DNA of 64,000 nt, from assembly GCA_016187025.1 (NCBI GenBank), contig JACPKM010000004.1:35212-99211 (forward strand), in the 5' to 3' direction. Within the stretch, counting starts at the first letter, position 1; the number at the start of each line of letters is the position of its first letter. Positions 14,834 through 19,613 of this stretch are shown here, in pieces. Source of the stretch: Candidatus Daviesbacteria bacterium (GTDB lineage: Bacteria; Patescibacteriota; Microgenomatia; Daviesbacterales; UBA10151). The notes under the pieces are model-generated. The model did not search any database. It worked only from the letters and a program-made list of their open reading frames with translations, and had not been told where the DNA came from. The translations under genes and the position numbers were made by a program.

Positions 14834-15637
14834 ATGAAAAAACTGCCCATTTTAATATTTGCTGCAATACTTGTTTTCTCCATTGTTTTTCCTGTATTTG
14901 CTCAGGAAGAGCAGGAACAAGAGGCAACAGGGTCATCAGATGCCTCCATGGGGGTTGCAAATTATTTGGTTATTGAAGGGGATGTGAGGCCTGGAAATAT
15001 TATTTGCTCTGCAAGTAATGGGTATTCACTGTGTGATGAAGCCTATGATTCCAGTATGCTGGGGGTAGTGGCAGAAAATCCAGCAGTGTCTTTTAATTTA
15101 ACAGGTTCAGATGAGTCTTCTCATCCTGTTATCTCCTCAGGCACAACTTATGTTTTAGTAAATAGTGAAGGCGGAGAAATTAAAAAAGGAGATTTAATAA
15201 CTACATCTGCTACAAACGGCGTTGGAACAAAAGCTTCCAAAAGCGGTTTTGTTCTGGGCTCTGCCATTGAAGGTTTTAATCCCGGTAAACCAACAGATTC
15301 AGGGACAATCGCAGTTTCACTGTATATGCACTACAGCAACCTCCAATCTGCAAAAGTTCAAGGCCAGCTGCAGGATGTATTTAAGCTAAGCGCCATTGCT
15401 GCTACAGAATCTCCCAGTGAAGTTTTTAAATACTTTTTGGCAGGGCTTGTAATCATGTCTTCTGTGGCAGCAGGGCTTTATACCTTTGGCAGGACAGCCA
15501 GCAGGGGTTTGGAGGCTTTAGGCAGAAATCCGATGGCCCAAAGAATCATTCAGATGGGGATTGCCATGAATGTGGTATTGACTGTAGCGATAGTTAGTGC
15601 AGGAGTAGTGATAGCCTATTTCATCTTACGGCTTTAA
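14834..15637 (+). CDS. atypical ATP-synthase c-subunit-like protein: signal peptide + ~180-aa extracytoplasmic domain + C-terminal c-type TM hairpin
   Basis: N-terminus MKKLPILIFAAILVFSIVFPVFA|QEE. The C-terminal 70 aa (LAGLVIMSSVAAGLYTFGRTASRGLEALGRNPMAQRIIQMGIAMNVVLTVAIVSAGVVIAYFIL) align with the F/V-type c subunit helix-loop(R-N/Q-P)-helix. The gene sits first in the alpha-gamma-beta-epsilon operon. There is no Asp/Glu at the helix-2 position 18 residues after the loop Pro. Confidence 0.5.
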   Translation: MKKLPILIFAAILVFSIVFPVFAQEEQEQEATGSSDASMGVANYLVIEGDVRPGNIICSASNGYSLCDEAYDSSMLGVVAENPAVSFNLTGSDESSHPVISSGTTYVLVNSEGGEIKKGDLITTSATNGVGTKASKSGFVLGSAIEGFNPGKPTDSGTIAVSLYMHYSNLQSAKVQGQLQDVFKLSAIAATESPSEVFKYFLAGLVIMSSVAAGLYTFGRTASRGLEALGRNPMAQRIIQMGIAMNVVLTVAIVSAGVVIAYFILRL

Positions 15638-15639
15638 TT

Positions 15640-17112
15640 ATGGATAAGTTTAAAAAATATCAAAATCACTATTTGGGTCAAGTTGTTGAGATTAAGTTTC
15701 CCTTGGTAAAGGTTGCAAACTTAGTAGGAGCATCTTTAAATGAAATAGTAGTATTTGAGAGAAATCAGGCAGGTCAAATCTATAGTCTGGAAGATCATAC
15801 AGCAGAGGTGTTGGTTTTTGATAAGCGCCCGGTAACCACAGGCTCAAAGGTTGCTTTAACAGGAGAAAAGAGCCGTATACCTGTTGGAAACCAGCTGTTG
15901 GGTGAGTTAATTGATCCTTTAGGAAACCTTTTAAAAAAACGCAGGTCTTATAAAAGACCTAAGCAGTTTTACCCATTGGAAGTAAGGCCCTTGGGAATTG
16001 GAAAAAGAGCCAGAATAAAGCAACCCTTTGTAACTGGTGTATCAATGGTCGATCTTCTAGTACCGCTGGGCAAAGGTCAAAGAGAGCTTATCTTAGGTGA
16101 TAGAAAAACCGGTAAAAGCTCCTTTTTAATATCCATTGTTAAAGGACAGCTTATACTGGAAAAAAACCCTCCAGTTGTAATTTATGCCTGCATTGGCAAA
16201 AGAAAAAGTGAAATCAAAGCTTTGGAAGAATATTTTAGCAAAGAAGGGTTAATGGAGAAAATGGTCATGGTGGCAACAAGCTCTTTAGATTCACCCAGCT
16301 TGATTTATTTAACTCCGTTTTCTGCTATGGCTGTTGCTGAGTATTTCAGGGATTTAGGAAAAGATGTGTTAGTAATTATGGATGATTTATCAACTCATGC
16401 CAAATTTTATAGAGAGATTTCTCTTCTTGCCAGACGCTTTCCAGGCAGGGATTCCTATCCTGGGGACATTTTCTACACCCATGCCAGGCTTTTGGAAAGA
16501 GCAGGTAATTTTAAAGTAGGGAGTAGAGAAGTATCTATTACCTGCTTGCCTGTTGCAGAGACCATGGAAGGGGATTTAACAGGTTATATCACTACCAACT
16601 TAATGGGTGTTACAGATGGGCATATCTTTTTTGACTCAAACGTTTTTTACAAAGGCAGAAGACCTGCGATTAATGTTCCTTTGTCTGTGACCAGGGTTGG
16701 TAAACAGACTCAAAATAAACTGGAGCAGTCAATCTCTGGGGCAATTTATGAGTTTTTAAACAAATACGAAACAGCTATAAACTTGTCCCACTTTGGGGCA
16801 GAATTGTCTGATGAGACAAGAAAAAATCTTATTCTGGGGGAAAAACTTGCTCAATTTTTTGACCAGCCTTATTCACTTTCTTTGCGGGAAGAGTTGCAAA
16901 TTCTGCTGCTTTCTTTAATCTGGCTTGGACTGGTAGGAGATGATCCGGTATTTCCAGTTTCAATCTGCAAGATAAACTTAATTAAGAACTTTGAAAAACC
17001 CCATATTAAAACACTTATCTTATCAGTTATCAGCGCTGATGATTTTGATAGTTTACTAGATAACATTGCAAAGAAAAAAGAGGAGCTTATAATTTTATGT
17101 CAACAAAGTTAA
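15640..17112 (+). CDS. atpA: F-type ATPase alpha subunit
   Basis: Strong similarity to alpha: GDRKTGKSS P-loop, ...ISLLARRFPGRDSYPGDIFYTHARLLERAG. Confidence 0.9.
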   Translation: MDKFKKYQNHYLGQVVEIKFPLVKVANLVGASLNEIVVFERNQAGQIYSLEDHTAEVLVFDKRPVTTGSKVALTGEKSRIPVGNQLLGELIDPLGNLLKKRRSYKRPKQFYPLEVRPLGIGKRARIKQPFVTGVSMVDLLVPLGKGQRELILGDRKTGKSSFLISIVKGQLILEKNPPVVIYACIGKRKSEIKALEEYFSKEGLMEKMVMVATSSLDSPSLIYLTPFSAMAVAEYFRDLGKDVLVIMDDLSTHAKFYREISLLARRFPGRDSYPGDIFYTHARLLERAGNFKVGSREVSITCLPVAETMEGDLTGYITTNLMGVTDGHIFFDSNVFYKGRRPAINVPLSVTRVGKQTQNKLEQSISGAIYEFLNKYETAINLSHFGAELSDETRKNLILGEKLAQFFDQPYSLSLREELQILLLSLIWLGLVGDDPVFPVSICKINLIKNFEKPHIKTLILSVISADDFDSLLDNIAKKKEELIILCQQS

Positions 17113-17978
17113 AGCTTGCAGATGAGTTATATGCTGCAAATGGAATGAGATTTTTGGCTCAAGCTTACGAGCAGATCTCAGTATTTAAAATGCAGAAAAT
17201 AAGAAGATCAGTTCTAAAAACCAGGGATTTTCTGGATAGATTATCAGATGTTTTTTTTGATGTTAAAGGCTCATATAAAGACAAAATTATTGCCCTAATT
17301 AAGAAAAAAAAGCATGTCCCAACTGTTAACTCGTTTTCAACACTACCCAAAAACGGTAAATCAGTAGCAGTTTTTTTGTCTGCTAACACCAGATTATATG
17401 GAGATATTATCAGCAAAGTTTTTCAATCCTTTAAAGAGTATGCCAATACACAATCAGAGGTAGAACTTGTGATAGTAGGAAAGCTTGGACGGGAAATTTA
17501 TGATAAAGAAAGCAGTAGTAAAAAAGCATATGAATACTTTGAAATACCAGACAATGATGTCTCCTTCGCCCAGCTTGAGCCTTTAATTGCCAAGATCCTA
17601 GATTATCAAAAGGTGACAGTATTTTATGGACAGTTTGTTAATGTTTTAAATCAGTCTGCCCAAGGCCAAGAAATTACTGGAGAGCAGCCGGTAGATGATA
17701 AGCAGGTTCAAAGGCAAGTGCACTTTTTGTTTGAGCCATCCTTAGAAAACATCTTAAACTTTTTCGAGACCCAGATTTTTACTTCAGCTTTCAAGCAAAC
17801 TGTTCATGAGGCCCAACTTGCTAGGTATGCTTCAAGGATCAATGCAATGGAGGAGGCTTTAGTCAATATAGACAAACGGATCAAGAATATTAAATACTTA
17901 AAGTTAAGGGCCCAAAAAGATATCCAAAATAAAAAGCTACAACAGACAATTGCCGGTATATCTTTGTGGGGAGGATAA
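17097..17978 (+). CDS. atpG: F-type ATPase gamma subunit
   Basis: Positioned between alpha and beta, overlapping both. N-terminus ([23 protein letters not shown]) and size are consistent with gamma. Confidence 0.65.
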
Positions 17979-19360
17979 GTTTCATGAAAAATATTGGAAA
18001 AATTACCAGTATCAAACAACATATTATTGAGGTTGAGTTTTTAGACCATAAACCCAAAATTCATAATCTATTAGTACTAAAAAATGACCGCAGTATCAAA
18101 ATGGAGGTATTTGCCTCATCCAAGGCAAATAAGTTTTATTGTCTGCTTTTGGCAAATACTCATCCTAGAATAGGTGATGTGGTGAAAGATACTGAAGAGC
18201 CAATTATTATTCCGGTAGGAGAGGAGCTTTTGGGAAGAGTTATAGATCTATTTGGCAAAGTCCAGGACGAAGGAAAACAGTTTCAAACAAAACACAAAAA
18301 GTCTGTTTTTAAACATGATTTAAGTTATGCCAAAATTAATACCCCAAAAACAGTACTTGAAACCGGCATCAAAGTAATTGATTTTTTTACCCCAATTTTA
18401 AAAGGGGGGAAAGTGGGGCTTTTCGGAGGAGCAGGAGTAGGAAAAACAGTTTTACTTTCTGAAATTATTCATAATATTGTCATTTTAGGAAAAGGTAAGG
18501 GTTTGTCTGTATTTACAGGAGTAGGAGAAAGGTCAAGGGAAGGCCAAGAGCTGTATGAAACAATGCAGGAAAACGGTGTTTTGAAAGATATTTGTTTGAT
18601 GTATGGGCAAATGGGAGAAAATCCGGCTGTTAGATTTAGAACTGCCACCAGTGGGGTAGCTGTGGCAGAGTTTTTCCGTGACTTTCTACAAAAAGACGTG
18701 CTGTTTTTTATTGATAATGTTTTCAGGTATGCTCAGGCCGGATATGAGTTATCAACTCTTATGAATACCATCCCTTCAGAAGGTGGGTATCAAGCCACTC
18801 TGTCATCAGAAATGGCCCTGCTTCATGAAAGACTTGCCTCAAATGAGAAAAACTTTATCACTTCTTTTGAGGCAATTTATGTCCCATCAGATGATTTAAC
18901 AGACCATGGTGTACAGTCGGTTTTTCCTTATCTTGACTCAAGTATTGTTTTATCCAGATCTGTTTATCAAAGCGGCTTGTTTCCGGCTGTAGATATACTT
19001 TCATCTGTGTCTTCAGCTTTGAATGAGGAAGTTGCCGGAAGCGTGCACTTTATAACCGTTTTGCAAGCCCTGGCAATCCTTAAAAAGGCAGTTACACTGG
19101 AAAGGATGGTATCGCTGATTGGTGAAGCAGAGCTGTCTGGGGATGACCAAATAGCTTTTAAAAGAGCCAGAATGATAAAAAATTACATGACTCAGAGCTT
19201 GTCGGTGGTTGAGGGTCAAACAGGCAAAAAGGGTAAATTTATTCCTTTGGAGCAAGTAGTCAGGGATGTAAAAGAAATCATTGAAGGTAAATTTGATTCT
19301 GTTGATCCAGGCAAGTTTTTGTACATTGGCAGCGCTGAGGAGGTAATGAATGCATCCTGA
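17966..19360 (+). CDS. atpD: F-type ATPase beta subunit
   Basis: [11 protein letters not shown] Walker [27 protein letters not shown] (DELSEED-like). Confidence 0.95.
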
Positions 19361-19613
19361 TGAAAAAAAGCTGCAGCTTACCATAATCAGCCCTGATTCA
19401 GAGGAAGTATTTACTGAAGAGGTGGATGTGGTTTCCTCAACTAATTTAGAAGGCCCATTTGATGTCTGGCCACTTCATACAAATTTTATCTCCATTATTA
19501 AAGAATTTTTAGTAATATATAAAAACAATCAAAAGATAAAAGAGCTAAAAATTGATACGGGTGTGTTAAGGGTAAACTCTAATAAAGTGGAAGTCTTTTT
19601 AGGAATAGCCTAA
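19350..19613 (+). CDS. atpC: F-type ATPase epsilon subunit (N-terminal beta-sandwich only, 87 aa)
   Basis: Position after beta plus the epsilon N-domain pattern. It lacks the C-terminal helical hairpin. Confidence 0.7.

Follow-up and report, generated by a model that had tools for sequence, protein, structure and literature searches.

Three kinds of F-type rotary ATPase and relatives of them bear on the locus described here. Canonical F1Fo enzymes are encoded in the order atpBEFHAGDC, and the N-ATPase by an atpDCQRBEFAG operon that includes an a subunit, a c subunit with a full Na+ or H+ site, AtpQ and AtpR. The closest functional analogues are the F1-like X0 ATPases of mycoplasmas, namely the MIB-MIP-associated cluster and the gliding G1-ATPase of Mycoplasma mobile, and the mycoplasma cluster consists of seven genes including those for a 12-transmembrane (TM) protein and a small cytoplasmic protein (PMC12994834). 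Here we describe a five-gene F-type ATPase operon in a 64,000-nucleotide stretch of Candidatus Daviesbacteria bacterium (assembly GCA_016187025.1, contig JACPKM010000004.1, positions 35,212 to 99,211 of the forward strand; hereafter the window). Its first gene encodes a c-like protein that combines a signal peptide, an extracytoplasmic domain (ectodomain) and a c-subunit-like helical hairpin, and it is followed by genes for the alpha, gamma, beta and epsilon subunits. On balance, we favor the view that this is a derived F-type rotary ATPase of Microgenomates-type candidate phyla radiation (CPR) bacteria which no longer translocates ions but works on the cell surface. This view rests on gene content and order, the homology of the hairpin, the universal loss of the ion-binding carboxylate, the predicted fold of the ectodomain, intact catalytic motifs and a conserved gene neighborhood.

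The operon encodes an F1 with intact catalytic motifs and a shortened epsilon subunit. The five genes are tightly packed, with a 2-nucleotide (nt) gap between the c-like and alpha genes and overlaps of 16, 13 and 11 nt at the alpha/gamma, gamma/beta and beta/epsilon junctions, and the open reading frames (ORFs) proposed in an initial annotation of this DNA are all present (Table 1). As in canonical F1Fo operons, homologous alpha, gamma, beta and epsilon genes follow one another in the same order and the c-like gene occupies the position of atpE. Both alpha and beta match Pfam ATP-synt_ab with E-values of 1e-62 to 1e-66. They are divergent, sharing 33% (alpha) and 40% (beta) identity with their E. 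coli counterparts, and the equivalog cut-offs of NCBIfam are missed by all subunits (447 bits versus 463 for beta with TIGR01039 and 396 versus 554 for alpha). Of the two possible starts of beta, the ATG at 17984 (458 aa) is the one called on Logan contigs. The P-loops, the catalytic Glu-Arg, the Walker B Asp in beta, the adenine-stacking Tyr and the alpha arginine finger SVTRVG are all retained, which bears out the earlier assessment that alpha and beta are catalytically intact. Epsilon, also described there as truncated, matches Pfam over its N-terminal beta-sandwich only and is missing the inhibitory C-terminal helices; its length ranges from 83 to 124 aa across the family. Judged by these motifs and domains, alpha and beta look like a catalytically competent F1 that would be free of the epsilon brake. 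The same c-like-to-alpha junction recurs in independent assemblies (L001-L003, L008/L020 and L013), which rules out an assembly artefact.

The C-terminal hairpin of the c-like protein is c-subunit-like and its ion-binding carboxylate is lost. In phmmer searches of the Protein Data Bank (PDB) with the c-like protein only c subunits are returned, and the top six matches of a family profile against the same database are all c subunits (E-values of 0.018-0.09). In the Pfam search suggested in the initial annotation, ATP-synt_C (PF00137) is matched at 15.5 bits, which lies below the gathering score of 24, and NCBIfam PRK07159 (subunit C) gives 18.6 versus 122. A hidden Markov model (HMM) built from seven canonical c subunits, when run against about 5,200 ORFs of 91 loci, matches the C-terminal hairpins of this family and nothing else. 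Aligning an 81-sequence hairpin profile with a canonical c alignment in hhalign yields a score of 23.9 over 68 columns (P = 4.6e-4), compared with 10.5 ± 1.7 for 30 column-shuffled controls (maximum 13.7) and 14.6 for a reversed alignment, and thus about 8 standard deviations above composition-matched controls. The single tests are weak and all point in one direction, so that at the level of sequence the hairpin is best described as specifically c-subunit-like, as had been proposed. Position 251, which corresponds to the ion-binding carboxylate of c subunits and lies exactly 18 residues past the loop Pro233, is occupied by Val, and helix 2 contains neither Asp nor Glu. This observation of the initial annotation extends to the whole family. 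All 81 distinct hairpins have V, I, L, A, G or M there, all alignments to c subunits agree on the position, and no mid-membrane acidic residue is found in either helix. G230, R231, N232, P233, A235, I239, N246 and F218 are invariant in the same 81 hairpins. The invariance of the GRNP loop and of N246, F218, A235 and I239 indicates strong purifying selection and not decay.

N246 (window positions 15569-15571), an Asn in helix 2 located 13 residues past the loop Pro, represents a type of conserved residue that is absent from canonical c subunits. Possible roles include ring packing or a contact with gamma and epsilon. We reject it as a substitute ion-binding residue, given its location near the cytoplasmic interface and the absence of a polar partner at equal depth in helix 1.

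If the c-like protein were not an ATPase subunit, it could be an unrelated surface protein with a two-helix anchor, encoded beside a soluble or otherwise anchored F1. We consider this very unlikely. The GRNP loop is invariant, the profile-profile score exceeds the controls by the margin given above, and the protein would share the N-out/C-out topology and cytoplasmic loop of bacterial c subunits. In addition, the c-like gene holds the atpE slot in about 70 loci of deep divergence, with intergenic distances from 2 to about 100 nt or with overlapping genes.

The ectodomain is predicted to adopt a fold resembling those of phage fibers and capsid decoration proteins. The N-terminus of the c-like protein is signal-peptide-like (MKKLPILIFAAILVFSIVFPVFA followed by QEE), and A23 and Q24 on either side of the predicted cleavage site are conserved family-wide. 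An AF2 model of the monomer based on a 36-sequence family alignment has a mean predicted local distance difference test (pLDDT) score of 87. It consists of an N-terminal signal-peptide helix (aa 4-16), a confidently predicted all-beta domain (38-164), a flexible linker with a short helix and a long helical hairpin (194-231 and 233-266). Sequence and model of the 267-aa protein thus agree with the architecture first described for it, a signal peptide followed by an extracytoplasmic domain of about 180 aa and a hairpin. In the model, the beta domain resembles the barrel at the C-terminus of phi29 gp12 as well as decoration or cement proteins of phage capsids. Foldseek comparison with viral models gives E-values down to 3e-12, with targets including tail proteins and 'preneck appendage barrel' proteins. 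Sequence identity to the phage tail-spike and decoration domains compared here (the phi29 gp12 C-terminal fragment 3gqh and decoration or cement proteins of HFTV1, Sf11, TW1 and XM1) is 13-28%, the score of Pfam PF23982 (XM1_gp53_minor_capsid) is below its cut-off and a PHROGs search with the c-like protein returns no match. Unlike these phage domains, the one described here is joined to a c-subunit hairpin within a single protein, whose gene belongs to a cellular genome and lies in an ATPase operon. The signal peptide is predicted to place the ectodomain outside the cell, which agrees with the N-out/C-out topology of bacterial c subunits and with an RNP loop facing gamma and epsilon.

No a subunit gene is found near the operon at any of the loci compared. 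Within the window, none of the multi-TM proteins is ATP-synt_A, and neither E. coli a nor the a-subunit signature R-x3-N-x2-[AGS]-[GDA]-[EHQ] finds a match. Across 86 non-redundant loci (1.43 Mb), phmmer with E. coli a and the signature are likewise empty; these searches are of moderate sensitivity and cover about 20 kb per genome. The related loci also contain no canonical c ORF, and ATP-synt_A and ATP-synt_C never occur among the Pfam labels of ten gene neighborhoods of relatives. HMMs built from the b-like and delta-like proteins of the family itself find neither subunit in the window. The initial statement that a, b and delta are absent from both the operon and the window therefore stands. 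For the a subunit, the combination of a universally absent carboxylate, on which it works, and an otherwise intact operon order starting at atpE argues for true loss, as far as gene content can tell.

Split atp operons are known in other bacteria. The operon could accordingly belong to a conventional ion-coupled F1Fo synthase or proton pump with a, in the clade of the window also b and delta, and perhaps a canonical c, encoded elsewhere and the c-like protein serving as an accessory or alternative ring subunit. The 64 kb read here are part of a 300-kb contig, some genomes of the family carry two c-like genes and CPR ATP synthases have been treated as ion-coupled enzymes (PMC8080830, PMC8672522), all of which would fit such an arrangement. 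However, with a membrane carboxylate in 0 of 81 hairpins, a ring of c-like subunits can neither be driven by an a subunit nor pump through one, and about 60 loci keep the canonical c-b-delta-alpha-gamma-beta-epsilon order without atpB in front. The 1.43 Mb of loci are devoid of a-like and canonical c ORFs, and orthodox F1 genes are much less divergent than those of this family. Overall, we regard a conventional enzyme as unlikely. Assignment to the orthodox F1Fo type fails on the carboxylate and the a subunit and, within the window, on b and delta as well.

The operon belongs to a widespread family in which most members retain peripheral stalk genes. The c-like protein matches a hypothetical protein from a Candidatus Daviesbacteria metagenome-assembled genome, within the Microgenomates of the CPR, at 100% identity. 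We identified 70 close homologues of the c-like protein in the protein database, while a scan of one genome per GTDB species found a c-like relative in 259 species and an exhaustive HMM search yielded 798 clusters (50% identity) at E ≤ 1e-30. The family is confined to Microgenomates-type CPR bacteria, with titled records from Daviesbacteria, Roizmanbacteria, Levybacteria, Amesbacteria, Woesebacteria, WWE3 and Microgenomates. We annotated 93 loci using HMMs built from the proteins of the family. In about 60 of them the order is c-like, b-like, delta-like, alpha, gamma, beta, epsilon, equivalent to canonical atpEFHAGDC with the c-like, b-like and delta-like genes taking the slots of atpE, atpF and atpH, and the most divergent family members also keep this order. 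In the b-like protein (165-296 aa), a single TM helix at the N-terminus is combined with a long coiled coil. The delta-like protein (140-240 aa) matches Pfam OSCP above the cut-off in three of five proteins scanned, and one protein-database match (P0071, on the L039 contig) carries the NCBI name delta. A delta-like profile search of a large protein database returned five proteins, none from Daviesbacteria, and is too insensitive to count as evidence. The presence of b-like and delta-like genes in about 60 loci indicates that a peripheral stalk is part of the machine of this family, and the version in the window would then represent a secondarily reduced form.

The reduced architecture is confined to one small clade of Daviesbacteria. 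A c-like gene directly preceding alpha is found only in the window, in L008/L020 (Daviesbacteria RIFCSPHIGHO2_02_FULL_39_12) and in L013, which form a single clade on the alpha tree with a neighbor-joining (NJ) distance of about 0.30 between genomes. The initial conclusion that there is no stator stalk consequently holds for these three genomes and not for the family as a whole. The 'GEYG' motif of the alpha N-terminus is conserved in stalk-bearing relatives and lost in the window clade, and this short alpha N-terminus without GEYG fits a true loss of delta better than its relocation. CPR genomes are reduced and some Microgenomates are without any ATP synthase (PMC7143001). The loss of b and delta in this clade would also be compatible with a decaying ATP synthase remnant of a reduced symbiont genome that has no present function. 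Such a remnant is extremely improbable. All five reading frames are intact and tightly coupled, the catalytic motifs are preserved, hairpin residues are invariant across the 81 sequences and the family is present in 259 species. The reduced architecture itself is common to three genomes of the divergence given above, which argues that it is maintained.

The operon is distinct from both the N-ATPase and the mycoplasma systems. The N-ATPase, to which the initial annotation had suggested a comparison, is likewise a divergent F-type operon without delta. Its gene order differs, no a, Q or R gene is present here and the scores of the alt_F1F0 models are far below their cut-offs (TIGR03324 for alpha, 318 versus 750.5; TIGR03305 for beta, 396 versus 752; TIGR03323, 16 versus 282). 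We therefore reject an identity with the N-ATPase on gene order and scores. Like the operon in the window, mycoplasma F1-like X0 ATPases combine alpha, beta, gamma and epsilon without b and delta, possess a shortened alpha N-terminus, are taken to hydrolyze and not to make ATP and are genetically linked to surface machinery, which in M. mobile includes giant proteins (PMC12994834). The predicted topology of the c-like protein, in which a signal peptide and an external part precede a C-terminal pair of TM helices, may be comparable to that of the mycoplasma X0 membrane protein. In contrast to the mycoplasma cluster, no 12-TM or small cytoplasmic protein flanks the operon in the window, the two-TM protein is small, c-subunit-like and located in the atpE slot, most relatives keep b and delta, and the host lineages, CPR and Mollicutes, are phylogenetically unrelated. 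The mycoplasma models score below their cut-offs (MSC_0618_beta, 395 versus 570; MSC_0619_alpha, 252 versus 520; glide_MMOB1660, 358 versus 600; glide_MMOB1670, 372 versus 850) and are outscored by the canonical atpD and atpA models, and an NCBIfam scan of the c-like protein returned no family of the mycoplasma cluster. Given the low model scores and the missing 12-TM and small cytoplasmic proteins, we reject membership in the mycoplasma F1-like X0 family.

A gene for a giant surface protein, on which the initial annotation was silent, lies immediately upstream of the operon and ends 116 nt before the c-like gene. Pfam identifies an intein (Intein_splicing, aa 526-826) and a Peptidase_S74 domain (aa 2422-2471), an intramolecular-chaperone domain typical of phage tail fibers, which is followed by about 270 more residues. 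The N-terminal ~220 aa, made up of a TM anchor and a conserved domain, match the membrane-proximal part of operon neighbors in other loci with 30-42% identity (blastp E-values of 1e-15 to 1e-29). The conserved domain is here called the N-module, whose HMM matches in the family reach E-values down to 1e-64 and which is found in a single gene of the window. Large ORFs adjoin the operon in most long loci. Of the 46 loci in which each flank extends for 3 kb or more, 37 have an N-module neighbor. The 48 N-module genes are all located no more than 3 kb from an end of the operon, and the 504 kb farther out contain none. Three arrangements occur: 30 of the genes share the strand of the operon and lie downstream of it, 2 share its strand and lie upstream, and 16 lie upstream in divergent orientation. 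This adjacency, kept through three rearrangement classes, indicates that the N-module giant gene and the operon are functionally linked. In six loci, the neighboring giant contains a copy of the c-like ectodomain (E-values of 1e-10 to 1e-20). The N-module matches no Pfam or PHROGs family, its PDB profile search yields a single weak 29-residue match to the phage Mu gp45 spike, and an AF2 model from three sequences (pLDDT 38) has no usable fold.

Many of the partner proteins carry a cytoplasmic helix-turn-helix (HTH) of the MerR/HTH_17 type ahead of the TM anchor (L004, 17601-20798; L011, 2-9556 on the minus strand; L062, 12718-17874; and about 45 other loci), an unusual location for a domain of DNA-binding type; the partner in the window is without it. 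In the divergent member L091 (10001-11389; P0068, 462 aa), the signal peptide of the c-like protein is replaced by an HTH and a TM helix, amounting to a partner-type N-terminal unit fused to a c-like protein. In L006, about 2.5 kb directly upstream of the c-like gene (7461-10001) contain no called gene, while the near-identical L007 has a giant gene there.

Table 1. Coordinates of the ATPase operon, its upstream neighbor and their sub-features in the window.
Feature	Position	Strand	Description
Giant surface protein, 2746 aa	6478-14718	+	N-terminal TM anchor ~aa 28-45, N-module, intein, Peptidase_S74
N-module, aa 41-217 of giant protein	6598-7128	+	HMM E 8e-64
Promoter-like site TTGCTA-17-TATATT	14796-14824	+	Consensus scan, 9/12 matches; weak
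c-like protein gene	14834-15637	+	267 aa; signal peptide, ectodomain, c-subunit-like hairpin
Signal peptide, aa 1-23	14834-14902	+	Predicted cleavage after VFA, read from sequence
Extracytoplasmic region, aa 24-195	14903-15418	+	Beta-rich domain aa 38-164, then linker helix
c-subunit-like helical hairpin, aa 196-267	15419-15637	+	Stop codon included
Loop R231-N232-P233	15524-15532	+	Equivalent of c-subunit polar loop contacting gamma and epsilon
Val251	15584-15586	+	Position of ion-binding carboxylate (E. coli D61, I. tartaricus E65)
alpha gene	15640-17112	+	490 aa; divergent, N-terminus short and altered; Pfam and NCBIfam
gamma gene	17097-17978	+	293 aa; Pfam ATP-synt E 1.2e-24
beta gene	17966-19360	+	464 aa from GTG; alternative ATG 17984 gives 458 aa
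epsilon gene	19350-19613	+	87 aa; Pfam ATP-synt_DE_N aa 8-83, E 3e-11

Taken as an ATP-driven motor without ion translocation, the complex would work as follows. The atpE product would have become a 'decorated c subunit' through the addition of a signal peptide and a phage-fiber-like ectodomain before the hairpin, with the membrane carboxylate replaced by an aliphatic residue and the RNP loop that docks gamma and epsilon kept. The a subunit, and with it the ion channel, would be gone from the operon. F1 (alpha3-beta3), equipped with an epsilon that has no auto-inhibitory helices, would hydrolyze ATP made by fermentation and turn gamma-epsilon together with a ring of c-like hairpins. As a consequence, a crown of ectodomains on the outer face of the membrane would be moved relative to the rest of the envelope, and since the ring cannot carry ions, the output would be mechanical only. 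The most probable target of this motion, or else its counter-bearing, would be the giant tail-fiber-like protein with its N-module. In most relatives, a peripheral stalk formed by the b-like and delta-like proteins would hold alpha3-beta3. In the window clade, where the stalk is lost from the operon, F1 would have to be restrained otherwise or its movement would be limited, and this reduced clade may use the complex differently. The initial annotation had predicted an F1-like ATPase attached to a non-ion-translocating, decorated ring and acting as an ATP-driven device. Its anatomy, comprising hairpin, lost carboxylate, ectodomain and F1, is confirmed, while we infer the assembly of the ring, its rotation, the direction of operation, the job of the complex and its link to the giant protein.

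The complex could alternatively be a membrane-tethered, non-rotary ATPase in which a c-like oligomer serves as an anchor or platform for display of the ectodomain and F1 acts as an assembly, unfolding or export ATPase for the giant fiber, similar to FliI/SctN in type III systems. The window clade is without a peripheral stalk, alpha and beta also score against FliI/SctN models, the neighboring giants need export and folding with an S74 chaperone domain present in the giant of the window, and the mycoplasma F1-like X0 complex works with surface proteins. On the other hand, the b-like and delta-like stator genes found in most of the family make sense mainly if torque is resisted, the rotor interface consisting of gamma, epsilon and the invariant RNP loop is conserved, and the best-scoring models are those of F1 and not FliI. 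Gamma and epsilon would moreover plug the cytoplasmic face of a c-ring. We consider a non-rotary ATPase rather improbable.

Several points weigh against an ATP-driven motor without ion translocation. A ring with a 170-aa domain on each subunit would be sterically demanding. Without an a subunit, the TM helix of the b-like protein has no obvious hold, and with no peripheral stalk in the window sustained rotation is hard to picture. Taken singly, the sequence matches between the hairpin and c subunits are all weak and stay under the Pfam gathering score, and genes for a, b, delta and a canonical c could yet lie in other parts of the genome. Stand-alone c-like paralogues (L054, L056, L074 and L078) indicate that the protein can exist outside the operon. 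With respect to the giant protein, the one in the window has no detectable copy of the ectodomain, and adjacency across related genomes is not statistically independent.

The stand-alone c-like copies, whose genes lie at about position 10000 in L054, L056, L074 and L078 and which include a further copy from WWE3 (L034), have no ATPase genes within 5-10 kb. In L074 and L078, the c-like gene is preceded by ORFs of about 790 and 336 aa that correspond in size and order to the class-A penicillin-binding protein and GH130 genes upstream of the c-like gene in L004. The copy in L034 has an N-module protein divergently upstream. In L015 (689-2675), the c-like, gamma and epsilon genes directly follow one another, and alpha and beta occur neither between these genes nor downstream of them; this contig may carry a further rearranged form of the operon. 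A possible second ATPase in L051 was dismissed, as the weak 'alpha' match at 3442-4758 is probably Rho.

The promoter-like site listed in Table 1 falls within the spacer that separates the giant gene from the c-like gene. Directly downstream of epsilon lie rplA-rplK-nusG-secE, a synteny kept in several relatives (L006, L008 and L009). The ribosomal protein L1 encoded there (window positions 19617-20501, minus strand; 294 aa) carries an N-terminal Lys/Glu-rich extension of about 70 aa. Two small overlapping ORFs at 21811-22426 on the minus strand (124 and 86 aa) resemble a PIN-type toxin and its antitoxin and may form such a pair. Among the locus-bearing records L011-L090, dozens of metagenome-assembled genomes that represent GTDB species are titled 'uncultured Gammaproteobacteria bacterium' and others Sulfotelmatobacter, Methylomirabilota, Limnocylindrales or Lysobacterales. 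These non-CPR titles are probably wrong, or the bins contaminated.

We found no published description of this operon type in the full-text literature, a coverage that excludes most subscription journals, and within the literature searched the architecture is new as well as widespread in one CPR lineage. The retention of a membrane 'ATP synthase' by CPR bacteria that have no respiratory chain is a persistent puzzle, and the enzyme has been explained as scavenging host protons or as a reverse proton pump (PMC8080830). In a large Microgenomates clade, which comprises 259 species or more, the sequence evidence speaks against any ion coupling of the enzyme. If an ATP-driven motor without ion translocation is correct, it would be misleading to record these genes as 'F-type ATPase present' in metabolic reconstructions. 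The complex would also be the first F-type rotor with an outward-facing output, built from a natural carboxylate-free c-ring with an external domain, and it would provide a test case for the mechanical re-use of ATP synthase parts, in parallel to the mycoplasma gliding and MIB-MIP ATPases. The pairing with giant phage-fiber-like proteins points to a concrete candidate machine for CPR-host interaction. In a more specific and speculative version, which we consider rather improbable, F1 would turn a c-ring devoid of carboxylates, and the phage-fiber-like crown of ectodomains on this ring would carry or actuate the giant protein docked via its N-module, resulting in an ATP-powered rotary or ratcheting appendage for attachment, movement or host attack. 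Such an appendage would represent the third independent recruitment of an F-type ATPase to surface mechanics, after the two mycoplasma systems, and the 'ATP synthase' of a large CPR clade would then have no role in membrane energetics.

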